Of a DNA stretch of 57,964 bases, positions 1,776 through 34,634 are shown one piece after another. How positions within the stretch are numbered: the first letter of the stretch is position 1; each line of letters starts with the position of its first letter. The stretch comes from Candidatus Firestoneibacteriota bacterium. Lineage in GTDB: Bacteria > Oederibacteriota > D2-FULL-39-29 > JBBTED01. Location: positions 1 through 57,964 of the forward strand of contig JBBTED010000081.1 of NCBI GenBank assembly GCA_038042445.1, written 5' to 3'. The notes beneath the pieces are model-generated. The model searched no databases. It saw only the letters and a program-made list of their open reading frames with translations, and had not been told where the DNA came from. The position numbers were made by a program, and so were the translations under genes.

Positions 1776-4700
1776 CTACTTTTGTCCTATAAACTCAATA
1801 GCACCAATATCTCGTGATTTACCATAAACAGAATTCCCATAAAAATCCTTCAAAAATGGACCATCAAATTCCCATTTGTATAATTCTTTTATTGTCGTTT
1901 CTGCATCTTTTAATGTCCCGCGAGAAATACGCAAATAATCCAGTATACCATCAAGAAAATTACTGTTATCTTGAAACTTACCTACTATAAAATCTCCATC
2001 GTTTAATAGACTTTCTTTGCTATCCATTTCGCCTAACCAATCTTTATTTGAGAGATTACCATCTATAAAAAGATTTATAGATTTTTTTTCTCGGTCAACC
2101 TCTACCAATATGTGATGCCACTTTCCATCATTTACAGAGTTCAGGCTTTTGCGAAAGCAAGATATATTCCCAAAGTTTAGCTTCATATTTATTTTTCCAT
2201 CTGCTTCTACTGTCAATGAATAACCTATTTTATTACTACCACTCGACATCTTTGATACAATTACACCTTCCTTTACATTAGCAACAACTTCAATCAAAAA
2301 ACTGTTTGTATCCATATCAAGTCCTTTGCCATCTTTTATATAACAATACTGTGTTTTACCATCAAACTTGAGCGCACCATCTACCCAATCTTCAAGTATA
2401 CCTTTCTCGTAATTTTGTTCATTAATACCGATTCCAAGAAGATCATTTCTTATTCCCTTCCAGTTATCTGTCCAATAATGAAAACTTTCATCAATAATCT
2501 TTTCTGGATTACTATATATTTTATAAAATCCCCATTCACCTGTCACTTTATAAAGCGCCCAAGGCACAAAGATTTTCCTCGCGCTATCTATAGCTATAGA
2601 ATTCTCACTTAGTTCAAATTTGTGACTTTCTTTATCTACTACTTGTTTTGTTAATATCGATTCCCCTGTATCGTTTATCATAGCTTTTTTCTCTTTTAAC
2701 ATATCTTGCCATTGTTTAAGCGTATTGCAAGTAATACCACCTCCCCCTCCACCCAATATTCCAAATGATGCACTGAGTGAACCTTCAAAAAGATTATATC
2801 CGTATGCAAGCGTTTCATGCTCAATGCTTGAATTACGTGGTTCATGGAGAAAAAGCATGCTACCTGAATCAATAACCAGATTATTTAAATAATAACATCT
2901 ATTATGTTCTGTTTGCGATTTATGAAATCCTAATACTACATTGTAAATAGTATTATTAAATACATAATTTAAAAAACCATTTGCTTCCTGTATACCTGCT
3001 GCATTATAAATAGGATCATTTACTTTGTTATTCTTGCCCCAGAATATATTATTAAAGACATATCCCTTATATTGGTGATCCATATAAATACAAGGGGCCC
3101 AGCATCTTCTCCGAAACCAATCCATTATTTGAGTTCGTTTATGTTGAGCATATTTAACACCTACAGCATTTCCTGATATATTATTATAAATATAAGTAGG
3201 TCCATAGAACCATGCCTCAATTCCTCCGATATCATCCATATTTATAACACTATTTTTAACTATATTTCTATAAACAAGCGTCCTGTAGAATGGAGAAAAA
3301 CTTATATGGCGAGAAGGAGTATTTTCTCCAACGTCATAAAAATATTTTGATCGCACTTCTATTCCTGCAAGTGCTACATAATCTACAACATTATTTGATA
3401 TCTCTACTATCTCTCCCCCTATTACAGCAATTGCACCTACCATTGCTCCTGGAGTTCTTTGACGAAATTGACAATTATTTATCTTATTACCGGTAATCAA
3501 TATATGTTTTACTCGGCAATTTTTTAACTGATGTACATATAATTCCTTTTCCGGGATAGTTAGATAATATATATTAAACCCTGCTGTAGCATGAATAGCG
3601 CCATCATCTATGTTTCGAATAATATTATTCCGTATTTCAAAACCATCTAAAACCTGTCCATCTTTGTATGGAAAAATCATAATGCCCATACCTGCGTATT
3701 CAATCGTACAATTAGCAATAATAATATTCTTGCTTTCTCCCATTATTCTGAATACCGGAGCAAGGCATCGAGCATTTAAAGAAGCATGTTGTTTGGAAAG
3801 TTGTTCATCAGCATAATCAATAGTATTAAAAAATCGTATTTTTAACCCATCAACCATAATATGTTCCTTTCCATCAATATCAAGGAAAATGTAATACTTT
3901 GCCGCTTCAATAATTGAATCATTCGGATTGCGATCATCTTTAAGGCGGACATAAAGACGGTGTTTATTTTTATCATAATACCATTCATTCGGACTATCTA
4001 AAAGTATAGGAATATTTTCAATAAAATAACGGCAGTATTTACGAAATGATCTATCGGAAAATAATAGTTCATGTTTTTCAGGATTATAGCCTTTAACTAT
4101 CTCACATACAACGTTTGGGAAAGACTCACGTTCACCCCAAACAGTAGCCCCTAACCAATAACATGGATCATTTTGTGTTAAATGTACATCATCTTGCATA
4201 CGGTTATAAAACATTTCTCCTTTTCCTAAAAATTCTTTCCAATCTTTTGATTTATCCAAATAAGATAACCCTTCATTATCTTTTCTTGCGAACGCTTTGA
4301 TTAGTGTACTAACCTTACCATTAGTTATCACAGCCCCAGGAATAATTTCTAACTTTCTCCATACTTTTCCCTCAGGTATTACATTTTCTGGAGTTTTTGT
4401 CTCTTCTACAGCTAACCTTAACCAATTTGGACCTACCTCAAGGATTTGAACTCCCCCGCCGGCAAACCCTAAAATTGGCTCTGCCTCTGTCTCCCTTTTT
4501 TCACCTGTAGCATTTATAGAATCTCCTTCCTTAAAACCAGATATATCTTCTACACCTACTATACATTCCATGATACCTCTTGTCCATTCCCACCATCCCT
4601 CTTGAGGATCATCAGGATTTGTAATCTCCCAGTCAGGCTCCCTTGCAATGTCTATTTTGATAATACGTCCATCTCTAATTTCATATAACATCTTTGGAAG

Positions 4701-5156
4701 ATAATCCCCTTTTAATTCTTTATACCATGTCTTTGATCTGCCATTCGCTGGGATTTCAGAAGTTTCTTTATCTGTACATCTTTTCCAGTCTCCAGTAAAT
4801 CTTTCAGAACCATAAATTTCTGCTTCACCAGTTCCCCATAAAGGATCTACTGTTAATTGAATAGGATTAGCTTCATCTCCGGATTCCATAGCCTTTAAAC
4901 TTCCTCTGTAGATAACACCTTGCTTTAAATAGTAGGTATGTTTGCCTGCTATGGATGCTGCCGTACCTGTAGCTTCCATATCCCATGGATGATGTTTCCA
5001 CGGTTTTTCTTTTGTCCCAAAATTAGCATCATTTCCATTCTCAAAATCTATATAAAATTTACCAGGAGGTGCTATTTCCCTCGCACTCTCTGCCAAACTA
5101 TTAACATTTAAACCGAATAAACATAAAATTAAAAACCAATATCTTACCTTCATCAT
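1776..5156 (-). CDS. Secreted right-handed beta-helix (pectin-lyase fold) protein with C-terminal LamG/ConA-like domain
   Basis: Signal peptide; N-terminal YIDFENGNDANFGTKEKPWK motif; repeated I.NN.I / VFNN strands; LamG-like DGKWHHILV...LFIDG; C-terminal DIGAIE. Confidence 0.75.
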   Translation of the reverse strand: MMKVRYWFLILCLFGLNVNSLAESAREIAPPGKFYIDFENGNDANFGTKEKPWKHHPWDMEATGTAASIAGKHTYYLKQGVIYRGSLKAMESGDEANPIQLTVDPLWGTGEAEIYGSERFTGDWKRCTDKETSEIPANGRSKTWYKELKGDYLPKMLYEIRDGRIIKIDIAREPDWEITNPDDPQEGWWEWTRGIMECIVGVEDISGFKEGDSINATGEKRETEAEPILGFAGGGVQILEVGPNWLRLAVEETKTPENVIPEGKVWRKLEIIPGAVITNGKVSTLIKAFARKDNEGLSYLDKSKDWKEFLGKGEMFYNRMQDDVHLTQNDPCYWLGATVWGERESFPNVVCEIVKGYNPEKHELLFSDRSFRKYCRYFIENIPILLDSPNEWYYDKNKHRLYVRLKDDRNPNDSIIEAAKYYIFLDIDGKEHIMVDGLKIRFFNTIDYADEQLSKQHASLNARCLAPVFRIMGESKNIIIANCTIEYAGMGIMIFPYKDGQVLDGFEIRNNIIRNIDDGAIHATAGFNIYYLTIPEKELYVHQLKNCRVKHILITGNKINNCQFRQRTPGAMVGAIAVIGGEIVEISNNVVDYVALAGIEVRSKYFYDVGENTPSRHISFSPFYRTLVYRNIVKNSVINMDDIGGIEAWFYGPTYIYNNISGNAVGVKYAQHKRTQIMDWFRRRCWAPCIYMDHQYKGYVFNNIFWGKNNKVNDPIYNAAGIQEANGFLNYVFNNTIYNVVLGFHKSQTEHNRCYYLNNLVIDSGSMLFLHEPRNSSIEHETLAYGYNLFEGSLSASFGILGGGGGGITCNTLKQWQDMLKEKKAMINDTGESILTKQVVDKESHKFELSENSIAIDSARKIFVPWALYKVTGEWGFYKIYSNPEKIIDESFHYWTDNWKGIRNDLLGIGINEQNYEKGILEDWVDGALKFDGKTQYCYIKDGKGLDMDTNSFLIEVVANVKEGVIVSKMSSGSNKIGYSLTVEADGKINMKLNFGNISCFRKSLNSVNDGKWHHILVEVDREKKSINLFIDGNLSNKDWLGEMDSKESLLNDGDFIVGKFQDNSNFLDGILDYLRISRGTLKDAETTIKELYKWEFDGPFLKDFYGNSVYGKSRDIGAIEFIGQK

Positions 5157-5740
5157 TTTGTATCCACCTCGCTTTTATCTAAAACAATCTTAATATCCCT
5201 TATCTGAACATCTACTGGTTGATTTTGATATTGAAATTGGATAAAATCTATTTCTTCATGTTCCGCAAAATCAGAAATAGGTATATTTACTTTTTGCCAG
5301 GTAAAGGGATCATCATCTATAACTTTCGCGTCAATATACGATTCTAAAGGACAAGATTTATTAAGAAACTTTCTTATACCGTCAACTATCTGAGAAGGAC
5401 CCAAATATATAATAAGATAATGTCCACCCTGATGCTGGCCATAGATATTATTACCACCATTTATTAAAAAAGATAAATATGCATTTTTATCCTTAATTAT
5501 TATGGTAAATTTTTTGTCCCAAACTTTTAGTCCAAAACCAGGCCATTGTTTTGTACTTTCATTAACCGCTGTCCTTAAAATACCATTATCTATCTTTACC
5601 TCCAGCCCCCCCCAAACACTTGCTATGGTCCAGCCTTCCCGAAGCTCACTGGTTAAAATACCAATCTCTCTGTTTTCTGCAAAACAATTAACAATCAACC
5701 CCAACAAACATAAAATTAAAAACCGATATTCTATTTTTAT
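5153..5740 (-). CDS. Secreted CBM-like single-domain protein, probable ATA start at 5740 (ORF track starts at 5707)
   Basis: GGAGG 5 nt upstream of an in-frame ATA; signal peptide similar to that of the downstream gene; motifs LSFLINGG, QGG and IDDDPFTWQKVNIP shared with 15699..16379 and the N-terminus of 16470..20264. Confidence 0.65.
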   Translation of the reverse strand: MKIEYRFLILCLLGLIVNCFAENREIGILTSELREGWTIASVWGGLEVKIDNGILRTAVNESTKQWPGFGLKVWDKKFTIIIKDKNAYLSFLINGGNNIYGQHQGGHYLIIYLGPSQIVDGIRKFLNKSCPLESYIDAKVIDDDPFTWQKVNIPISDFAEHEEIDFIQFQYQNQPVDVQIRDIKIVLDKSEVDTK

Positions 5741-5954: not shown

Positions 5955-7028
5955 ATGCAATTAACTTCAAAAGAACGGGCACTTATTTCTATTAATGGTA
6001 AAGAACCAGATAGAATACCTATTGATTACTGGGGAACAAAAGAAATAACAGAAAAACTGATAAACTATTTCAAGTTTTCTAATTATGACCAGCTTTTAGA
6101 AAAATTCAATGTTGACTTTAGATATATTTTCCCTGAGTATAACGGCCCTGAACTTGAAGTATATCCTGATGGAAGTTATAAAGACCTGTGGGGAATAATA
6201 AGAAAAAATCAGATTGTAAAAAATGGGTCTTATGAGGAAGTAATAAAAAGTCCTTTGGCTGATTTTACTTCTATAGATGATATTGAAAATTATAACTGGC
6301 CAAATCCAAACTGTTATAACTACGAAAATATTAACGCACAATTATCTAAATATAAAAACTATGCCACAATAGCTGTTGGAGACAGAACCAATAGAACATC
6401 AATTCTGCACGCTGGAATTTATTTAAGAGGAATGGAACAAATACTTCTTGATTTATATGAAAATGAAGAATTAGCTCAAAAACTATTTGAAAAAGTAACC
6501 AATTTTTATCTTGAAGTTAATAAACGAATATTTGAAGCAGGAAAAGGCAAAATTGACATTTTTATGATGGGTGATGATTTTGGAACACAAAATAGTTTAT
6601 TGATATCTCCAAAATTGTGGCATAAATTAATAAAACCTCACCTGATAAAACATATTAAACTTGCAAAAAATTATGGTTTGAAAGTTATGCTTCACTCCTG
6701 CGGTGCAATATTTGAGTTAATACCGGATTTAATAGAAATAGGAATAGATATTTTAAATCCTATTCAGGTGCGAGCTGATAAAATGATTCCACAAAAACTA
6801 AAAGAATCTTTTGGAAATAAATTATGTTTTCATGGTTCAATTGACATACAAAAAACTTTACCACTTGGAACAAAAGAAGATGTTATTGAAGAAGTAAAAG
6901 ACAGAATTAAAACTTTAGCCCCAAATGGAAAATTTATAATATGCACAACACATAATATTCAAGCTGACACACCTATTGAAAATATACTCACACTTTATGA
7001 TTCAATAATTCAATACGGAAAATATTAA
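5955..7028 (+). CDS. Uroporphyrinogen decarboxylase / MtaA-CmuA superfamily protein
   Basis: TSKER...EPDRIP start, GDDFGTQ, HSCG, GSIDIQ, LPLGT, HNIQ motifs. Confidence 0.85.
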   Translation: MQLTSKERALISINGKEPDRIPIDYWGTKEITEKLINYFKFSNYDQLLEKFNVDFRYIFPEYNGPELEVYPDGSYKDLWGIIRKNQIVKNGSYEEVIKSPLADFTSIDDIENYNWPNPNCYNYENINAQLSKYKNYATIAVGDRTNRTSILHAGIYLRGMEQILLDLYENEELAQKLFEKVTNFYLEVNKRIFEAGKGKIDIFMMGDDFGTQNSLLISPKLWHKLIKPHLIKHIKLAKNYGLKVMLHSCGAIFELIPDLIEIGIDILNPIQVRADKMIPQKLKESFGNKLCFHGSIDIQKTLPLGTKEDVIEEVKDRIKTLAPNGKFIICTTHNIQADTPIENILTLYDSIIQYGKY

Positions 7029-7032
7029 AACG

Positions 7033-7061
7033 AGATTCTTCGGTTTCACCTCAGAATGACA
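7033..7061. repeat. REP-like half element, family E (AGATTCTTC...CAGAATGACA)
   Basis: Matches the right arms of 14003-14083 and 34557-34634. Confidence 0.75.
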
Positions 7062-7076
7062 TCTTTCAGTGAATAG

Positions 7077-7226
7077 TTATTTTTGCTGGCGCTTTTCTAT
7101 TTCTTGTTTTAGGCAATCTTGATAATTAGGACATTCATCACAACATACATCGGATTCGCCTCTTTCACCACGAACCCATTTTGTAATACAATTGTTAATT
7201 TGTAGACATCTATCGCAACATTTCAT
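7077..7226 (-). CDS. 49-aa Cys-rich small protein with two CCxxCx5C motifs (not in ORF track)
   Basis: MKCCDRCLQINNCITKWVRGERGESDVCCDECPNYQDCLKQEIEKRQQK*; ATG 2 nt after the flxA stop. Confidence 0.7.
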   Translation of the reverse strand: MKCCDRCLQINNCITKWVRGERGESDVCCDECPNYQDCLKQEIEKRQQK

Positions 7227-7228
7227 TT

Positions 7229-8062
7229 TTAATATTCATCCGGTAAAGCGAGCATTTGCTTGTATGTAAAAACAGGTCCGTCTTTGCATACGTAAATGCT
7301 GCCTATATTACATCTTCCACATTTTCCAAGACCGCATTTCATTTTTAATTCAAGAGTAGTAACAATATCATCATCTGAAAAACCTAAATCTTTTAATGCT
7401 ACAACAGTAAATTTAATCATTACTGGCGGGCCACAAGTAATTGCAATAGTATCTAATGGTGTTGGGTTTAATTCTTTTAGAACAGTTGGAATTAATCCCA
7501 CTTTTTGCTTCCACTCATTATCTCCTTTATCTACAGTTAGAAAAACATCCATCTCACCTTCTTTTTGCCAAACAGGTAGCGATTCTTTATAACATAAATC
7601 CTGTGGACTTCTTGCTCCATACAGCAAAAACCTGCTTTTAAAATCCTGTTTCATATCAATTGAATATTCAAGTAAAGATTTTAATGCAGCCAAACCTATT
7701 CCACCACCTATGAATAATAATTTCTTACCTTTTAGCTTGTCTACAGGAAAACAATTTCCATAAGGACCACGCAAACCAACTGTATCCCCTATTTCAATAT
7801 CGTGTATTGCCTCTGAAACTTTGCCGACTTTCTTTATACTGCACTCTATATAACCTTTTCTTGTTGGAGAATTTGCAAATGTAAATACTGCTTCGCCTAC
7901 TCCAAATACAGACAATATCAGAAATTGCCCTGCAGAAAAAGAAAATTTTTGCCCTGCTTCAGTATCCTGAAAAATAAATCTGAAAGTCTTAACATCAGGA
8001 GTTTCCTGTTTTATATAATCTACAGTCATTAAATGCGGTTTGTATATATCTTTTTCCTTCAT
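7229..8062 (-). CDS. flxA: FlxA-like FAD/NAD-binding oxidoreductase subunit (AsrB/PyrK family)
   Basis: GQF, RGPYG, GGGIG, CGPPVM, KMKCGLGKCGRC...VCKDGPVF; likely start MKEKD at 8062 overlapping the upstream stop. Confidence 0.85.
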   Translation of the reverse strand: MKEKDIYKPHLMTVDYIKQETPDVKTFRFIFQDTEAGQKFSFSAGQFLILSVFGVGEAVFTFANSPTRKGYIECSIKKVGKVSEAIHDIEIGDTVGLRGPYGNCFPVDKLKGKKLLFIGGGIGLAALKSLLEYSIDMKQDFKSRFLLYGARSPQDLCYKESLPVWQKEGEMDVFLTVDKGDNEWKQKVGLIPTVLKELNPTPLDTIAITCGPPVMIKFTVVALKDLGFSDDDIVTTLELKMKCGLGKCGRCNIGSIYVCKDGPVFTYKQMLALPDEY

Positions 8063-9075
8063 TGGGCCTCCGTTAATACTTTTCGTATGTCTATGCCTAC
8101 AGGACAACTTTTTATACACCTGCCACAACCTGTACAAAGGGGCTCCCCCATATTTTCTACAAAATATTTAAATTTGTGATTAAATCTCTGCCTGAATCTT
8201 CTTTTTGGATCAATTCTTGGATTTACTCCACCACCCATTTTTGTAAAATTAGCAAACATACAAGAATCCCATGTTTTAACACGTTCTCCTGAAGTTTTAG
8301 CTAAATTATCCGCTATATCAAAACAATAGCAAGTAGGACAAACATAAGTGCAAGCACCACAATTCACACACGGAAAACTTGCTTCATCCCAATATTTGCT
8401 TTCAAATGAAACATCTAATTTTGATTTAATCTCTTTTGTATTTATTTTTCTCTTAATTTTGTTTTCTGCTTCTTTTGCCAATTTTTCTATCTCTTTTTCA
8501 ACATCAGCAGATGCAGGTTTTAAAACAGATTTTATTTCGTTTAAAAACTCCTCGCCTTTTTTAGTTATTTGTTGAATATAATACCCATCTTGGACTTCAG
8601 TTAATAATAAATCTGAACCCTGTTTGGAAAATGGATGTCCCTTTTCAATTGAAGTGCAAAAACAACTATCTGGTGGATTAATACATGAGAAACTTATAAT
8701 TGTCGCTTTATCCCGTTTATTAAAATAAAATTCATCTTTGTAATTTGCCCAATTAAAAAGTTTATCTAATATTTCAAAAGCAACAGCATCACATGCTCTT
8801 GCTCCCCATATAAGTATTTTTTTGTTAGATTCCTCGAGTTCTTTTAAATCAACTTTGTTTTTTGCCAAATTAAATTTAAGCAACACTTCAGTTTGTGGGA
8901 ATACAACACCTTTAGGTGAATTAACAGTATAAACATCACTTAAAACTTTGTCAGTTTCAGTAATATGCTCAAACACAGGTAAACCATTATGCAATACAGG
9001 CGCAAATATTTCATAACCTGCAGAAATTTTGTCCAATAATGTTTTTACCTGATTTTTTTCAATTATATAGTTCAT
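8059..9075 (-). CDS. flxB: FlxB-like 4Fe-4S dicluster protein (AsrA family)
   Basis: RACD, CFCTS, CVNCGACTYVCPTCYCF, WDSC, CTGCGRCIKSCP. Confidence 0.85.
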   Translation of the reverse strand: MNYIIEKNQVKTLLDKISAGYEIFAPVLHNGLPVFEHITETDKVLSDVYTVNSPKGVVFPQTEVLLKFNLAKNKVDLKELEESNKKILIWGARACDAVAFEILDKLFNWANYKDEFYFNKRDKATIISFSCINPPDSCFCTSIEKGHPFSKQGSDLLLTEVQDGYYIQQITKKGEEFLNEIKSVLKPASADVEKEIEKLAKEAENKIKRKINTKEIKSKLDVSFESKYWDEASFPCVNCGACTYVCPTCYCFDIADNLAKTSGERVKTWDSCMFANFTKMGGGVNPRIDPKRRFRQRFNHKFKYFVENMGEPLCTGCGRCIKSCPVGIDIRKVLTEAQ

Positions 9076-9944
9076 AACATTTTGTCAAATTCTTCTCCTG
9101 GCTTAAATGTTTCAAGTGGAGGCAAAGTTGTTATATCTGCACCAGGGACATAATCAAATAATTCTTTTGCCATTTTTAGTGAATTTGCTGTAATTAAACT
9201 CAAAGGTATACCAACAGGACAGGCAAGTTCACAAGCACGGCAATCTGTGCATCTGCCAAATACATGTTGTGTTCTTATAAGATGAAACATTATATTTTCC
9301 ATAGGACTAACATTAGTATTTATCCATTTGGGCTGTGTGCACTCTGCAAAACATTCAGGGCAATAGCAAGCAGGACACACTTCCCTACAAGCGTAACACC
9401 TTATACATTTTTCAAACTGTTTTTTCCAGAATTCAAGACGCTTTCCGGGAGTCAATTTTTCCAATTCTTCAAGTTTTGCAAGTAATTCTTTGTCTGCAAG
9501 TTCTTCTTGTGTTATCTGCTTAATTTTCTCGTTACCTATTATATAATCCACATCTTCTTTGGGAATTTTAACCCCACAGTGTTTACATTTAGCTGCTAAT
9601 TTGTCTTCATTTTGCTTAACAGCTTGTCTGTCTTTTATACCATCACAGGTAAGTGCTATTATGATTAAATCCTCCCTGTTTACCTGATGTTCTTTTATGA
9701 TTTCCCGCAAAGAAAACAAATCACAACCTTTTACAAATATACCTATTTTTTTACCTCTTACTTTTAATACATACTTTGAAAGATTATGAAAACAATTACT
9801 ATTGAATATCAGTTTTTTTACAGAATCAGGAGAAAAAATTATACAAGGCATAGGATGAACATCATCAAATCCCTGTTCGTATCCTATTATACAATCCACT
9901 TTTTTCTCAGTTAATAAATTTTGTGCTGTTTCTTGTATAGTCAT
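9072..9944 (-). CDS. flxC: FlxC-like 4Fe-4S protein (FdhB/FrhB C-terminal like)
   Basis: KGCD, CIRCYACREVCPACYC, CTDCRACELACP; position in the hdr-flx operon. Confidence 0.8.
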   Translation of the reverse strand: MTIQETAQNLLTEKKVDCIIGYEQGFDDVHPMPCIIFSPDSVKKLIFNSNCFHNLSKYVLKVRGKKIGIFVKGCDLFSLREIIKEHQVNREDLIIIALTCDGIKDRQAVKQNEDKLAAKCKHCGVKIPKEDVDYIIGNEKIKQITQEELADKELLAKLEELEKLTPGKRLEFWKKQFEKCIRCYACREVCPACYCPECFAECTQPKWINTNVSPMENIMFHLIRTQHVFGRCTDCRACELACPVGIPLSLITANSLKMAKELFDYVPGADITTLPPLETFKPGEEFDKML

Positions 9945-9979
9945 AAATTATTAAAGTGGATCTTTTTTACCCAAAAACT

Positions 9980-10081
9980 TGTCATGCCGAACTTGTTTCG
10001 GCATCTCATTAGATCCTGAAACAAGTTCAGGATGACAAAAAATAAGTTCAGAGCTTGTCCTGAATTTATTTCAGGAATGAC
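9980..10081. repeat. REPIN-like element, family D, plus an extra hairpin, between flxD and flxC
   Basis: TGTCATGCCGAACTTGTTTCGGCATCT...AGATCCTGAAACAAGTTCAGGATGACA; related copies at 26855 and 28928. Confidence 0.8.
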
Positions 10082-10089
10082 CTTTCAGG

Positions 10090-10494
10090 TCATTTTGTCA
10101 ATGGTCCTAATTCTCTTATTTTTTCTGTTACATTTTTTACTACTTCTGAAAATTTTACTCCTTCAGATGCAGATACCCAGCTTGCAAAAAACCTGTTTTT
10201 ATCAATTCCAAAATTATTCAGAAGTTCACTTACAACTAAAAACCGTCTCTGCCAATAAAGATTGCCTTTGTTATAATGGCAATCCCCAGGATGACATCCT
10301 GATACTAAAACACCGTCTGCACCAAGTTTAAAAGCTTCAATTATAAACATTGGATCCATTCTTCCAGTGCAGGGAAGTTTTATTATCTTTATATTTGCCG
10401 GATATTCCTTTCTGGATAAACCAGTAAGATCAGCCCCAGCATAACTACACCAATTACACAAAAATCCAACTATATTAGGTTCCCAATTATTCAT
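10090..10494 (-). CDS. flxD: MvhD/FlxD [2Fe-2S] subunit
   Basis: FLCNWCSYAGAD, PCTGR, GCHPGDCHY, WVSASEG. Confidence 0.9.
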   Translation of the reverse strand: MNNWEPNIVGFLCNWCSYAGADLTGLSRKEYPANIKIIKLPCTGRMDPMFIIEAFKLGADGVLVSGCHPGDCHYNKGNLYWQRRFLVVSELLNNFGIDKNRFFASWVSASEGVKFSEVVKNVTEKIRELGPLTK

Positions 10495-10500
10495 ATTATT

Positions 10501-12477
10501 TTATTCTATACATACGGCTTCTAATTCTGCCATTATTTGTTTATCTCTGAAACCTCTTAAATCTATGGCTTTGCAATAACAAGATCCAACACAGGTTCCA
10601 CATCCTCTGCATACTGATTCTATAACATTTGCTATTGAACGCTTTACGCCTCTTCTGATTTCTCTTTCCCGCATTTCAATTGCATTAAATGGACACACTA
10701 ATTTACAGGTCTCACATCCTGAACAAAGCGAGAAATTAACCTGAGCTATTGTTGGCTCGATTTCTATATTGTCTTTTGAAAATAAAGCACAGACTTTTGC
10801 AGCAGCAGCTCCAGCTTGTGCTACTGTATCCGGAATATCTTTTGGACCAGAACAAGCGCCTGCTAAAAATATTCCAGATGTAACTGTTTCAACAGGAGCA
10901 AGTTTTGGATGAAGCTCTGTAAAAAAACGATAAGTATCATACGGTATTCCAAGTGTCTGTGCAACTTTAACTGAATCATACTTTGGAACCATAGCATCTG
11001 CTAAAATTACCATATCAGCATCTATTTCTACTTGTCCGCCTGCTAATGTATCAGTTCCTAATACTCTTAGTTTTTTGCCCTTTTCATATATACGTGAAAC
11101 TCTGCCACGTAAATATGTTACCTGATAATCAACCTGCGCACGTCTAACAAACTCTTCATAGCCTTTTCCAAAAGCTCTTATATCAATATAAAATATATAC
11201 GCTCTGGAATTAGGCAAATGTTCTTTTAAAAGTATAGCCTGCTTTGCTGTCCACATACAGCAAACTCTTGCGCAATAATCCTGTCCCTTTGAAGGATCTC
11301 TGGCTCCAACGCATTGAATAAATACTACATCTTTTGGTTCTTCCTGATCAGATGGCCTTAAAATATGGCCATCTGTTGGACCAGATGAGCTAACCATTCT
11401 CTCAAATTGCAAACCGCTTAGTACATTTTTATATTTTCCATAACCATATTCACCATAATTTGAATGGTCATAAATATCTATGCCAGTAGCTACAACAATT
11501 GCCCCAAATTTTTCTTCAACAACTTCATCTTCCTGATTGTAAATTATTGCATTTGATGGACAAAATTTCTCACAAACTTTACATTTTCCTTTAAGAAAAT
11601 ATATACAATTATTTTTATCTATTACAGGAACATTTGGCACAGCCTGAGGAAACGGAGTATAAATTGCTTTTCTGTCTCCAGTTTTTTCATTAAATTCACT
11701 GGAAGTTTTTGCCGGACATTTTTGTGTGCAAACACCACAACCTGTGCATTTAACCATATCAACATAGCGAGCTTTTTTTCTTATTTTAACAGTAAAATTT
11801 CCAACATATCCTTGAACTTCTTCAACTTCAGCATAAGTATAAATTTTTATATTTTTATTTTGTGCAACTGCAACCATTTTAGGAGAAAGTATACACTGTG
11901 AACAATCTAATGTTGGAAATGTTTTGTCCAGCTGCGACATTCTTCCGCCTATTGAAGACTCTCTTTCTACAATAACAGTTTCATGACCCGCATCACCTAA
12001 ATCAAGACTCGCCTGTATTCCTGCTATTCCACCGCCTATTACAAGCGCCCTTTTTATTACAGGTGAATAAAGAGGAAAAAGTGGCTCATTGCGAAGCACT
12101 TTCGCAACTGCTATTTCCGTAAGCTTCATTGCTTTTTTAGTTGCAGCTTCTTTATCTTTCTGATGCACCCATGAACATTGCTCACGGATATTTGCCATTT
12201 CAAAATAATACGGATTTATTTTTCCTTTATTAACACAAATTCTAAATGTCAGCTCATGCATTCTTGGTGAACAGGAAGAAACTACAATTCTATCAAGTTT
12301 ATATTCTTTTATAGTATCAAGTATTAAGTTTTGTCCGGGATCAGAACACATATACTTGTATTCTTTTGCTATTGCAACTTTTTGCAATGTCATAGCATAT
12401 TCCACAACTTTTGGAACATCAACTGTAGACGCAATATTCACTCCACAATCACAAATAAACACACCAACTCTAGCCAT
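10501..12477 (-). CDS. hdrA: Heterodisulfide reductase subunit A
   Basis: GVFICDCG, CSPRMHE, NIREQCSW, GGGIAG, DKTFPTLDC, FIQCVG, CCM, ferredoxin motifs. Confidence 0.95.
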   Translation of the reverse strand: MARVGVFICDCGVNIASTVDVPKVVEYAMTLQKVAIAKEYKYMCSDPGQNLILDTIKEYKLDRIVVSSCSPRMHELTFRICVNKGKINPYYFEMANIREQCSWVHQKDKEAATKKAMKLTEIAVAKVLRNEPLFPLYSPVIKRALVIGGGIAGIQASLDLGDAGHETVIVERESSIGGRMSQLDKTFPTLDCSQCILSPKMVAVAQNKNIKIYTYAEVEEVQGYVGNFTVKIRKKARYVDMVKCTGCGVCTQKCPAKTSSEFNEKTGDRKAIYTPFPQAVPNVPVIDKNNCIYFLKGKCKVCEKFCPSNAIIYNQEDEVVEEKFGAIVVATGIDIYDHSNYGEYGYGKYKNVLSGLQFERMVSSSGPTDGHILRPSDQEEPKDVVFIQCVGARDPSKGQDYCARVCCMWTAKQAILLKEHLPNSRAYIFYIDIRAFGKGYEEFVRRAQVDYQVTYLRGRVSRIYEKGKKLRVLGTDTLAGGQVEIDADMVILADAMVPKYDSVKVAQTLGIPYDTYRFFTELHPKLAPVETVTSGIFLAGACSGPKDIPDTVAQAGAAAAKVCALFSKDNIEIEPTIAQVNFSLCSGCETCKLVCPFNAIEMREREIRRGVKRSIANVIESVCRGCGTCVGSCYCKAIDLRGFRDKQIMAELEAVCIE

Positions 12478-12480
12478 AGT

Positions 12481-13350
12481 TTATATTAATCCTTTTGAGG
12501 ATAACAATTTTTCAGCAGATACCATATGCCTTTTCAAGCCCAATCCTCTTATATCTGCTCCCATACTCAAACCTATAAGCTGTGTGAAATAAAAAACAGG
12601 TAAATTATATTTAACTTTATACTTTTTCTCAACTTCTTTCTGTCTTAAATCTAAATTTGAATGACAAAGCGGACAAGCAACCATAATACAATCCGCTTTT
12701 TCATCATAAGCATTTTGTAATATATCATTTGTTAATTTTAAAACCAACTCTTTTTTAGAAAGCGAAAAAGTAGCTCCACAACATTCTGTTTTATATGCCC
12801 AATTCACAGATTCAGCTCCCAAAGATAAAACAAGATTATCTAAAAACTGTGGGTCTTCAATTCGGTCAAATGTTGCAACCTTAGGCGGGCGTGTTAACAA
12901 ACATCCATAATAAGAAGCGATTTTTAAACCTGACAATTTTTTTGCAACTTTTTTTTCAATTTCTTTTAACCCTATTTTTTCAATTATAACCTGGGGCAGA
13001 TGGTAAATATCTACATTGCCTTCATAAGTTTCGCCCAAAACTTCAGAAACGTTTTTCTTTAGTTCTTCATTTTCTGCAACTTCAAGATTTGCTAATTTTA
13101 GTCTAGAAAAACATTCACTACAAGGAGCAGCAACAGGTAAATTTTCAGTTTGAGCCCATAGAAGATTTTTGGCAGGCAGTGCAATACTTGCAAGTGCATT
13201 AGTTCTATGAATTGGTGTTGCTCCACAGCAAACCCAATTTGGAATTTCCACAAGTTCAATGCCTAATCTGCCACATACAAATTTGGTGGAAGCATCATAT
13301 TCCTTTGCAGTTGAATGCAAAGAACATCCGGGAAAATATGCAAATTTCAC
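12481..13350 (-). CDS. hdrB: Heterodisulfide reductase subunit B
   Basis: YFPGC, CCG, YYGC, ECCG, CPLC (two CCG domains). Confidence 0.95.
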   Translation of the reverse strand: MKFAYFPGCSLHSTAKEYDASTKFVCGRLGIELVEIPNWVCCGATPIHRTNALASIALPAKNLLWAQTENLPVAAPCSECFSRLKLANLEVAENEELKKNVSEVLGETYEGNVDIYHLPQVIIEKIGLKEIEKKVAKKLSGLKIASYYGCLLTRPPKVATFDRIEDPQFLDNLVLSLGAESVNWAYKTECCGATFSLSKKELVLKLTNDILQNAYDEKADCIMVACPLCHSNLDLRQKEVEKKYKVKYNLPVFYFTQLIGLSMGADIRGLGLKRHMVSAEKLLSSKGLI

Positions 13351-13364
13351 TTAAATATTCCTTT

Positions 13365-13913
13365 CTAACGGGATTTCGATTTCTCAAAAATTTGTTGGAC
13401 AGCTTTACTATTGACACGTGAAAAAGATATAGGCAATTTGCCTTTAATAAACATCTTTGGAAAAAGCAAAACATCTTTAAACAAATTAAAAGTCAGTGCA
13501 TTATTTAATGCTCCAAGTAAAAATTCTGGAGGCCTGCCAAAAACTTCAACTAATTTTGTAAAAATTTTATCAAATATAGCTATTCTTAATTCTCTTGGTT
13601 TAAACTCGCCATTTTGAGAAACAATTCTGGTAGCATCCATTAACTTTGCGATATCTATTTCTCTTGGGCATCTTGTAGTACAGGTTTCACAGGAAATACA
13701 AAACCAAGGTGTATTGCTTTTTTTTATCTCTTCTGTTACTCCTAATTGCAAAATTCTAATAAAACGGGTAGGCCCCAAATCCATAGCATAAGCCAAAGGA
13801 CAACCTGCTGTGCATTTGCCACATTGATAACAATTTGCAACAACTTGGCCACTGATTTTTTCAACTTCTCCAGTTATTTTTTTATCCGTATCTTTGAGTA
13901 TAATCCATTTCAT
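13365..13913 (-). CDS. hdrC: Heterodisulfide reductase subunit C
   Basis: CYQCGKCTAGCP, WFCISCETCTTRCP. Confidence 0.93.
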   Translation of the reverse strand: MKWIILKDTDKKITGEVEKISGQVVANCYQCGKCTAGCPLAYAMDLGPTRFIRILQLGVTEEIKKSNTPWFCISCETCTTRCPREIDIAKLMDATRIVSQNGEFKPRELRIAIFDKIFTKLVEVFGRPPEFLLGALNNALTFNLFKDVLLFPKMFIKGKLPISFSRVNSKAVQQIFEKSKSR

Positions 13914-13925
13914 AATAGTGCTTTA

Positions 13926-13954
13926 ATTTTATTTGAAAATTATGTTTGTGTCAA
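13926..13954 (-). promoter_or_regulatory. Sigma70-type promoter of hdrC
   Basis: TTGACA, 17 nt, TAAAAT, 12 nt before the ATG. Confidence 0.65.
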
Positions 13955-14002: not shown

Positions 14003-14083
14003 TGTCATTCTGAGGCTTTAGCCGAAGAATCTATCTTTAAAAGTCCTTTTAAAACAAGATTCTTCACTTCGTTCAGAATGACA
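14003..14083. repeat. REPIN-like element, family E
   Basis: TGTCATTCTGA...GAAGAATCT spacer AGATTCTTC...TCAGAATGACA inverted arms. Confidence 0.85.
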
Positions 14084-14212: not shown

Positions 14213-15688
14213 TTATAATCCCATAAGTTTATGAGAAAAATCTGCAAAAGGATTTTTGCTGGTTTTCATTTCCTGATAAAGATGTAGTTTCAATTCTTTT
14301 AAGATTTTTGTATACTTTGGATTATCTATTAAATTGTTTAACTCATAAGGATCATTATTTAAATCATATAATTCATCAATATCAGATGGAGTAAAAATAT
14401 ATTTATAATTTTCAAATCTTATCATATTTTGAAAGTGCATACCGCGAATGTCAAATCCATAGAATTGGCCTGTTACATTTTTTCTGGCTTTCTCCTGCCT
14501 GCCTTCAATTACTGGAAGCAAACTACAAGAATCAATATCATTCGGCTTAGAAACCTCACAAATATCCAATATTGTAGAAAATATATCCATATTACTTGCA
14601 AAAGATGAACATCTGTTTTGGACAATATTTTCACCTGCTCTGATTATCAATGGAACTTTATATGTTTCTTCATACATATACGGTCCTTTATCCCATAAAC
14701 CATTATGACATCCAAGTGTATCACCATGATCAGATGTAAAAATTACTATTGTATTCTTATCAAGTCCAAGATTTTTTAATTCATTAAGTATCTTCCCTAT
14801 CTGAAAATCTATCATAGACATAAAATCAAAATGTGCTGCAATTATTTTCTGCCATAATTTCCATCCTTTTGCAGATAAACTTTTATGTAAATATTTTATG
14901 TATCTTTTTTGTATATGTGGTTTATTAGAAAGATCATCACGAAAATTTTTCCATTCCTGTATATTTTCAGGATTGTGCATTCCTGCAAATTCAGGTGAAG
15001 GAAAAGCAGGATGATGCGGCCCCCAAAATGCTGCTGTTATAAAAAATGGCTTGTCTTTATATTTTTTAAGCAATTCTATGGTTCTGGCAGCAACAAAACC
15101 AGATTCTGTAAGATTTGTTGGTAAATCTATCACTCCTGAATATAGGTTACCACAATTTACTTCTTTTGTCAGTTCAGGTAACAGCCACGTAGTTTTTTGA
15201 GAAAAATCTGTTTCTCCTATTGGATTTTTTATTTGTATTGTATCCCATCCAAAATGCCCTTGTTCTTTTAAAAATTCATCGTAATCTTCAACAAAATCAG
15301 GTAATCCATAACCAGCATGCTTTGTCCCTTCAAAACCATATTCACGCGGCCCTTTATTTACTCCTATATGCCATTTACCTACATATCCACATTTATAACC
15401 TGCATTTAAAAGATAATGCGTTATAACACTTTTCTCATCATCTATTTCACTCTTGCCATACGGTTGTGTTGTAGTATTATATAAAATGCCATGTCTGTGT
15501 GGAAGCTTGCCTGTAAAAATAGATGCTCTTGCAGGAGAACAAATAGATAACGGAGTATACGCATTATCAAAAGTTACTCCCTCTTTGGATAAATTATCTG
15601 TATTAGGTGTCTGACAAATTCCAGCATAAGAACCAAGAGTATTTGCTATTACCTGATCCACCATTATAAACAAAACATTTTTTTTCAT
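14213..15688 (-). CDS. Cys-type formylglycine sulfatase, no signal peptide
   Basis: NVLFIMVDQ, CSPARASIFTG (CxPxR), GKWH, FTSDHGD, ELYDLNNDPYE. Confidence 0.92.
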   Translation of the reverse strand: MKKNVLFIMVDQVIANTLGSYAGICQTPNTDNLSKEGVTFDNAYTPLSICSPARASIFTGKLPHRHGILYNTTTQPYGKSEIDDEKSVITHYLLNAGYKCGYVGKWHIGVNKGPREYGFEGTKHAGYGLPDFVEDYDEFLKEQGHFGWDTIQIKNPIGETDFSQKTTWLLPELTKEVNCGNLYSGVIDLPTNLTESGFVAARTIELLKKYKDKPFFITAAFWGPHHPAFPSPEFAGMHNPENIQEWKNFRDDLSNKPHIQKRYIKYLHKSLSAKGWKLWQKIIAAHFDFMSMIDFQIGKILNELKNLGLDKNTIVIFTSDHGDTLGCHNGLWDKGPYMYEETYKVPLIIRAGENIVQNRCSSFASNMDIFSTILDICEVSKPNDIDSCSLLPVIEGRQEKARKNVTGQFYGFDIRGMHFQNMIRFENYKYIFTPSDIDELYDLNNDPYELNNLIDNPKYTKILKELKLHLYQEMKTSKNPFADFSHKLMGL

Positions 15689-34556: not shown

Positions 34557-34634
34557 TGTCATTCTGACACTGAACGAAGTGAAATGGAAGAATCTTGTTT
34601 TTTAGAGATTCTTCGGCTTCGCCTCAGAATGACA
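34557..34634. repeat. REPIN-like element, family E
   Basis: TGTCATTCTGA...GAAGAATCT / AGATTCTTC...TCAGAATGACA. Confidence 0.85.

Follow-up and report, generated by a model that had tools for sequence, protein, structure and literature searches.

A conserved eight-cysteine domain encoded by a 49-codon gene at the end of a bacterial hdr-flx operon

The open reading frame (ORF) at positions 7077-7226 of the window (the whole stretch of DNA analyzed, 57,964 nucleotides from a Candidatus Firestoneibacteriota bacterium) is a genuine gene that is conserved and under purifying selection. Its 49-residue product is built around an eight-cysteine domain of about 40 residues, for which Pfam, NCBIfam, PHROGs, and PADLOC hold no model. 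With moderate confidence, we consider the gene to have been acquired laterally and to encode, in stand-alone form, an undescribed metal-binding module (zinc or iron-sulfur) that would serve in docking or sensing. The gene would be co-transcribed with the flx-hdr genes that it follows.

Position and Sequence of the Small Gene

The seven ORFs upstream of the small gene have the order and the domains of FlxABCD-HdrABC as judged by Pfam and NCBIfam searches (Table 1), several of the NCBIfam scores for these hdr and flx genes falling under the curated cut-offs. The gene order bears out the original prediction that the small ORF closes the hdr-flx operon. Its 49 codons run from an ATG at 7226-7224 to a TAA at 7077-7079, and two bases (7227-7228) separate the ATG from the flxA stop codon (TAA, 7229-7231), so that the claimed start 2 nt past flxA can be read directly from the coordinates. 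Given this 2-nt gap and a simple scan that predicted no terminator between flxA and the small ORF, co-transcription of the two is likely, and their translation may also be coupled. The longest flxA frame has a TTG as its first codon and shares 79 nt with flxB. The flxA orthologues align from residue 28-30 on, and a GGAGG precedes the ATG of Met-26 at 8062, which is probably the true flxA start.

Table 1. Features of the window around the hdr-flx operon
Feature	Position	Strand	Description
Secreted-looking protein (1126 aa)	1776..5156	-	One operon flank; identity read from the translation alone
Short ORF	5153..5707	-	Same flank; identity read from the translation alone
URO-D/MtaA-like methyltransferase gene	5955..7028	+	Converges on the operon end
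REP-like hairpin and U-rich tract	7031..7058	-	19 nt past the small-ORF stop
49-aa eight-Cys gene	7077..7226	-	Unnamed domain CCxxCx5C-xxKWxRGE-x6-CCxxCx5C and short basic tail
flxA	7229..8137	-	Pfam NAD_binding_1, FAD_binding_6, DHODB_Fe-S_bind; FAD/NAD-binding plus 2Fe-2S domain
flxB	8059..9075	-	Fer4_22, AsrA/HydB-like; Pfam, NCBIfam
flxC	9072..9944	-	4Fe-4S dicluster protein; Pfam
flxD	10090..10494	-	MvhD/FlpD-like; PF02662, E 2.7e-50
hdrA	10501..12477	-	NF040770 HdrA2, E 4.9e-243, under curated cut-off
hdrB	12481..13350	-	Two CCG domains: PF02754, 2 stretches; TIGR03288, E 1.8e-60
hdrC	13365..13913	-	Pfam, NCBIfam
Promoter-like TTGACA-17-TAAAAT	13926..13954	-	12 nt upstream of hdrC ATG; near-consensus match alone
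REP-like copy	about 14006..14040	+	
Sulfatase-like gene	14213..15688	-	Other operon flank; identity read from the translation alone
REP-like copy	34604..34631	-	

The hairpin past the small ORF folds with -11.1 kcal/mol at a z-score of -0.33, which is not exceptional, and it was not called by the simple terminator scan; it may possibly mark the end of the operon transcript. Rfam returned nothing relevant in positions 6800-7400. The hairpin belongs to a REP-like repeat of the form GTCATTCTGAGG-loop-CCGAAGAATCTC that is present in at least 35 copies across the genome, in many cases with a T-rich tract behind it. Copies of the repeat bracket the hdr-flx operon, two of them inverted upstream of hdrC and one past the small ORF. 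Many public contigs map to the repeat, and their depth peaks at 7032-7075.

A second FlxA/HydG-like paralogue (40% identity) was observed on another contig of the same genome (C27, about 9334-10209; locus L029). The match crosses two stop codons (one TGA and one TAG) and may be broken, and the gene that follows looks like a small subunit of the NiFe sulfhydrogenase type. Similar copies of the paralogue are found in genomes G001, G007, and G011.

The cysteines of the 49-residue protein fall at residues 3, 4, 7, and 13 and at residues 28, 29, 32, and 38. They make up a pair of CCxxCx5C motifs with the same spacing, as had been predicted from the translation. Fourteen residues lie between the motifs, the linker reads KWVRGE, and the C-terminal tail is weakly basic. 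A six-frame search of the 2.81-Mb genome yielded 34 single motifs and one twin motif, that of this ORF, where about 2e-4 twin occurrences would be expected by chance from the six-frame Cys frequency. The original contention that the repeat is improbable in AT-rich DNA was therefore correct. The G+C content of the ORF (34%) does not differ from that of the genome (31.9%). At least eight cysteines are present in 18 of the 3162 Met-to-stop ORFs of 40-70 residues in this genome, so that little can be concluded from the number of cysteines by itself, and the repeated spacing carries more weight. The protein had also been described as hidden, a term that holds only in part, as public protein collections already contain the identical sequence (P0001, 4 contigs).

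Conservation and Identity of the Eight-cysteine Family

A word-indexed search with the single protein matched only the protein itself and one relative, P0002, and a full HMMER scan was needed to reveal the family. A phmmer search of 1.84e9 representatives recovered 28 proteins at E ≤ 1e-3, the query included, with E values of 1.8e-11 to 5e-4 for the other 27, and the family profile matched the window genome at 1.8e-21. Scanning species genomes with a degenerate pattern recovered 81 relatives (80 loci retained), and a metagenome scan recovered 261 (80 retained); a metagenome scan with the single protein found no close relative. About 190 relatives were recovered over all searches. The full twin motif lies in an open frame at 79 of the 80 genome loci and at every one of the 80 metagenome loci.

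In alignments of 23 and 98 sequences, Cys-3, Cys-4, Cys-7, Cys-13, Trp-17, Cys-28, Cys-29, and Cys-32 are invariant. When the alignment is extended to 134 sequences, the seven cysteines remain invariant and Trp-17 is retained at 90% or more. Conservation of at least 90% was likewise found for Lys-16, Arg-19, Gly-20, Glu-21, and Cys-38. Both halves of the domain share the pattern CCxxCxx(Y/F)xxC, suggesting an internal duplication. Among 160 core sequences the median pS was 0.95 (saturated) versus a median pN of 0.17, and the median dN/dS of the 253 less-diverged pairs was 0.17.

A contig from an independent study (run X4) covers positions 7050-7226 and is roughly 90% identical, with 15 substitutions in the ORF. 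These substitutions comprise five synonymous codons, one of which is Cys-32 (TGT to TGC), and eight mostly conservative replacements. None of the cysteines is changed, nor is Lys-16, Trp-17, Arg-19, Gly-20, or Glu-21. The ORF contains no insertions or deletions, and 22 inserted letters fall within 7063-7075, just after the stop codon. This contig has a depth of 2.4, and an individual difference could therefore be an error. Past the ORF start, its remaining 64 letters did not match flxA at 80% or above. The relative P0002 (77% identity) has no Cys-38, is scrambled over two short stretches, and continues past the stop codon, which reflects either errors in assembly or a copy in decay. On this account, constraint may not extend to every relative.

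The short length of the ORF is what might be expected of a chance frame encoding no protein, but the family-wide conservation, the dN/dS of about 0.17, and the avoidance of the ORF by insertions and deletions reduce this explanation to a negligible likelihood. The original prediction had made its case dependent on homologues and purifying selection. Both are present, as seen in the HMMER family, the dN/dS ratio, and the X4 variant.

The 49-residue protein has no match in Pfam or NCBIfam at E ≤ 0.1. Pfam matched the 134 family members only once, in a chance hit to GATA (E 0.0099), and for four members PADLOC gave no match and PHROGs a single one at chance level (E 0.08). In the databases the members bear only the name "hypothetical protein," and in the ESM Atlas the closest clusters consist of unnamed proteins from Omnitrophota. 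The 49-residue protein itself has the eight cysteines at the family spacing, the KWxRGE linker, and significant matches to the family. AlphaFold models built from the 98- and 134-sequence alignments had a mean pLDDT of 61.9 and 65.2, respectively, both of which denote low confidence. In the better model, a Cys-rich loop leads into a helix and this arrangement then recurs, the Cys motifs lying mostly in loops. This loop-helix repeat is tentative because both models are of low confidence. Foldseek returned no PDB match at E ≤ 0.001, and the best Z-score in the wide VIA-align search was 2.2, giving no significant structural neighbor.

When the family profile was searched against all PDB sequences, the only match was to the twin-Cx9C protein TRIAP1, at a nonsignificant E of 0.19. 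The likeness to the twin-Cx9C (CHCH) proteins TRIAP1/Mdm35 and UPF0203 lies in the C3-x9-C13 and C28-x9-C38 pairs of the 49-residue protein, in an aromatic residue that precedes the last Cys by three positions, and in a Trp after the second Cys. Nevertheless, the UPF0203 model PF05254 matches the homologue P0003 only at E 0.075 (13.7 bits against a cut-off of 27), which is not significant. Four additional invariant cysteines set the eight-cysteine family apart. The CHCH proteins are eukaryotic and stabilized by disulfides, and each of their Cx9C motifs lies inside a helix of a helix-turn-helix hairpin; the low-confidence models of the family tentatively place its Cys motifs mostly in loops.

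The 2x[4Fe-4S] ferredoxins resemble the family in having about 50 residues with eight cysteines in two groups, in their occurrence in anaerobes, and in having redox complexes as neighbors. However, the spacing in the 49-residue protein is CCxxCx5C rather than CxxCxxCxxxCP, and no Fer4 match was found. The WhiB-like proteins and endonuclease III/MutY have [4Fe-4S] sites with CxxCx5C spacing, a spacing found within each half of the eight-cysteine domain that offers a lead, and a cluster-based sensor would suit the sensor-kinase fusions described below. In this case too there is no Pfam match, and the fourth ligand would have to be the adjacent Cys, which is unusual. Taken by its sequence features, the family appears to belong, as an unnamed variant, with other small, metal-binding proteins rich in Cys, and there is no indication of an unusual mechanism. 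No description of the family was found in literature searches on Omnitrophota Rnf/cysteine-rich proteins, which returned no paper, or on bacterial twin Cx9C/CHCH proteins, for which the papers listed all concern mitochondrial proteins. Since the motif is not text-searchable, these results point only weakly to an absence of the family from print.

Distribution, Neighborhoods, and Fusions

The titled genome loci are mostly from Omnitrophota, with single loci from WOR-3, Edwardsbacteria, Brocadiaceae, Deltaproteobacteria, and Thermodesulfobacteriota. Named protein matches add Desantisbacteria and Dehalococcoidia. Titles and run labels together point to uncultured lineages of groundwater or sediment. 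Of 301 Omnitrophota genomes sampled evenly, 60 carry the family, nearly always in a single copy, and the sequence is very highly conserved across genera.

Gene neighborhoods were classified at the 159 loci with the full motif, with neighbors identified by Pfam. An rnfC gene upstream combined with an MFS-type gene downstream is the commonest arrangement (67 loci), followed by the MFS gene alone (38 loci); rnf alone accounts for 7 loci. The remaining classes are a NifU_N/disulfide oxidoreductase cluster (12 loci), gas-vesicle clusters (6 loci), and a position between an inositol-monophosphatase-family (suhB-like) gene and def (6 loci, plus one counted in the NifU group), and 23 loci belong to none of these classes. 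Some family loci lie after uvrB.

A conserved co-directional cluster containing the eight-cysteine gene is seen at L194:2259-7123, at L185, and at about 10 more metagenome loci. The order in the L194 type is DUF2099, NifU_N, metallo-beta-lactamase, the eight-cysteine gene, CoA_binding_2, pyridine-nucleotide disulfide oxidoreductase, and radical SAM; DsbD_TM is present in the L185 cluster. The L194-type cluster thus constitutes a thiol/Fe-S flavored context for the family. At L044:4308-10200 and at L127 the eight-cysteine gene directly follows GvpK, GvpA, and an unassigned gene of 227 residues, and is itself followed by genes for an ABC substrate-binding protein and a CHASE/PAS sensor.

Adjacency to rnfC at 74 of the 159 loci, together with Flx-Hdr in the window, raises the idea of a very small Fe-S electron carrier that would take the place of ferredoxin in serving ferredoxin/NADH-linked complexes (Rnf in the Omnitrophota and Flx-Hdr here). 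Eight cysteines in a 2x4 arrangement within about 40 residues would be appropriate to such a carrier, as would the 12 loci with NifU_N/pyridine-nucleotide disulfide oxidoreductase/DsbD_TM clusters and the groundwater and sediment provenance of the matches. However, the eight-cysteine gene is always on the strand opposite to that of rnfC (74 of 74 loci), as it is to that of the MFS gene (105 of 105), and rnfC is therefore not co-transcribed with it. Moreover, RnfC is no commoner in the Omnitrophota genomes that carry the family (46 of 60; 77%) than in the background (232 of 301; 77%). Since rnfC is invariably divergent and is not enriched at the genome level, its adjacency looks like clade synteny rather than dependence. 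The window genome has no RnfC, RnfD, or RnfG detectable by tblastn, no Fer4-type match was found, and the gas-vesicle, def, and uvrB neighborhoods and the kinase fusions fit a carrier poorly. We consider this explanation unlikely.

Stand-alone copies occur in at least five different neighborhoods, and most have a Lys/Arg-rich tail. Such tails, with the positions between the suhB-like gene and def or after uvrB and the very high conservation across Omnitrophota genera, would accord with a structural zinc-binding housekeeping mini-protein whose basic tail binds nucleic acid or a large complex, in which case the adjacency to flxA would be meaningless. The distribution is too patchy for a core factor, with 60 of the 301 Omnitrophota genomes and a single one of 99 genomes of the window's phylum being positive, and the tail of the window protein is only weakly basic. 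We give a housekeeping role a low probability.

The domain also occurs as a part of larger proteins. It forms the N terminus of TPR/HATPase_c proteins of about 1480-1520 residues (L109, P0050, and P0052), and these kinase fusions come from Deltaproteobacteria/Thermodesulfobacteriota metagenome-assembled genomes. At L109 the kinase gene (5971-10416, + strand) is followed, with an overlap of a few bases, by a sigma-54 activator gene (10416-11894, + strand). By its position in these proteins, the eight-cysteine domain is a candidate new sensory input domain. In P0027 the domain is joined to Jag_N, and in two truncated proteins it stands after the apparent end of an ExeA-type ATPase, as read from the sequences alone. 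Proteins of 270-324 residues contain two or three copies of the domain in tandem.

This modular use bears on the idea that the small gene encodes the precursor of a ribosomally made, cysteine-cross-linked peptide (RiPP), for which the small size, the richness in Cys, and a radical SAM gene about 2 kb downstream at 4 loci of one context group could be cited. The domain is conserved as a whole, KWxRGE included, with no split into leader and core, and it is fused within large kinases and repeated in tandem. In the window there is no adjacent maturase, the neighbors being flxA and the URO-D/MtaA-like gene. A RiPP precursor is accordingly very improbable.

Relationship to Flx-Hdr and Probable Function

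The original prediction drew on the Flx-Hdr complex of Desulfovibrio, for which DsrC was reportedly proposed as the thiol/disulfide partner of FlxABCD-HdrABC by Ramos et al. in 2015, and it cast the peptide as a candidate metal/Fe-S carrier or HdrB disulfide substrate. In line with its statement that no dsrC is seen, PF04358 had no match in the window genome, which is 90% complete.

The link to Flx-Hdr itself was not upheld. The flanks of the homologous loci, up to 6 kb or 5 kb in length, were searched with all seven Hdr and Flx proteins of the window (tblastn, E ≤ 1e-8), and no homologue was found at any of the 80 genome loci or the 80 metagenome loci; the metagenome loci are often short, with at least 1.5 kb upstream in 49 of the 80. 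Homologues of the small gene are thus unlinked to hdr-flx at all 160 loci. Conservation downstream of flxA in other genomes was also looked for. Twelve genomes of the same class have an orthologous flxA (55-63% identity), which is followed by fhs in eight and by a T2SSE-type ATPase gene in four; a small Cys-rich ORF after flxA was found in none of these 12 flx-hdr operons. Because fhs follows flxA in these relatives, the 3' end of the operon appears to have been rearranged in the lineage of the window. With the family profile, no member was detected in 40 relatives or among the other 98 genomes of the phylum, which leaves one carrier of the family in 99 genomes. DsrC above the cut-off was also lacking in all 13 relatives searched. 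Flx-Hdr in the same-class genomes therefore works without either protein. These results show that the small gene is neither a general Flx-Hdr companion nor a conserved eighth member of the operon.

DsrC/TusE (PF04358), which is put forward in PMC6470260 as the proposed thiol/disulfide partner of FlxABCD-HdrABC in Desulfovibrio, resembles the 49-residue protein in that both are small, Cys-containing proteins proposed to act with Hdr-type enzymes. There is no sequence relation between the two, the 49 residues compare with a DsrC model of 107 positions, the window protein has eight invariant cysteines, and its homologues are never found beside hdr or flx. DsrC instead possesses a C-terminal redox Cys pair. 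As a replacement for DsrC, the peptide would be a thiol/disulfide (or persulfide) partner of HdrB that is oxidized elsewhere and re-reduced by Flx-Hdr. The location of the gene 2 nt after flxA within the operon, the lack of DsrC in the genome, and the abundant paired cysteines speak for such a role. Against it, hdr or flx accompanies none of the 160 homologue loci, and all 12 related flx-hdr operons are without the gene in genomes that are also without DsrC above the cut-off, so that the enzyme must have another acceptor in this class. In addition, all eight cysteines are equally invariant beside unrelated neighbors, which fits a structural metal site better than a redox pair. A stand-in for DsrC is therefore improbable, and on the sequence evidence it is unlikely that the 49-residue protein is a dedicated Flx-Hdr partner.

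The tight coupling of the small gene to flxA leaves room for a role specific to this lineage, in which a new small Fe-S or thiolate-metal redox module would have been captured as an eighth Flx-Hdr subunit or as an acceptor. We regard such a capture as doubtful. A complex prediction for FlxA and the 49-residue protein gave no answer (score 0.00) and speaks neither for nor against binding.

We return to the reading that we favor, that of a laterally acquired metal module. The gene would have been inserted at the 3' end of hdrCBA-flxDCBA after lateral acquisition, as suggested by its being the only family copy found in 99 genomes of the phylum; the G+C content of the ORF, which matches that of the genome, gives no sign of such an origin. 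The eight invariant thiols of the protein may hold two four-cysteine metal centers, either zinc or Fe-S, and a metal-binding role is plausible. In the low-confidence model, each repeat would lead from a Cys-rich loop into a helix, the two being joined by the KWxRGE segment. The folded module might then act in metal- or redox-dependent docking or sensing rather than as a thiol/disulfide substrate, as suggested by its position at the head of TPR histidine kinases and by its unrelated gene neighborhoods. Sensing or docking thus seems the most likely function of the 49-residue protein.

For Flx-Hdr the outcome is mainly a correction, in that the small gene is a local addition to the operon and not the missing equivalent of DsrC. 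Should the protein nevertheless prove to be a captured Flx-Hdr subunit or acceptor, in a lineage without DsrC and Rnf, it would provide a handle on the physiological acceptor of bacterial Flx-Hdr outside the sulfate reducers. Small cysteine-rich proteins are easily overlooked, and here an eight-cysteine domain has been conserved yet has remained unmodeled in four libraries. It is found in 60 of 301 Omnitrophota genomes and in scattered uncultivated lineages, and it has been taken up into sensor kinases as an N-terminal module. Were the domain to contain a redox-active metal site, Fe-S or other, it would represent a new compact sensor or carrier module.
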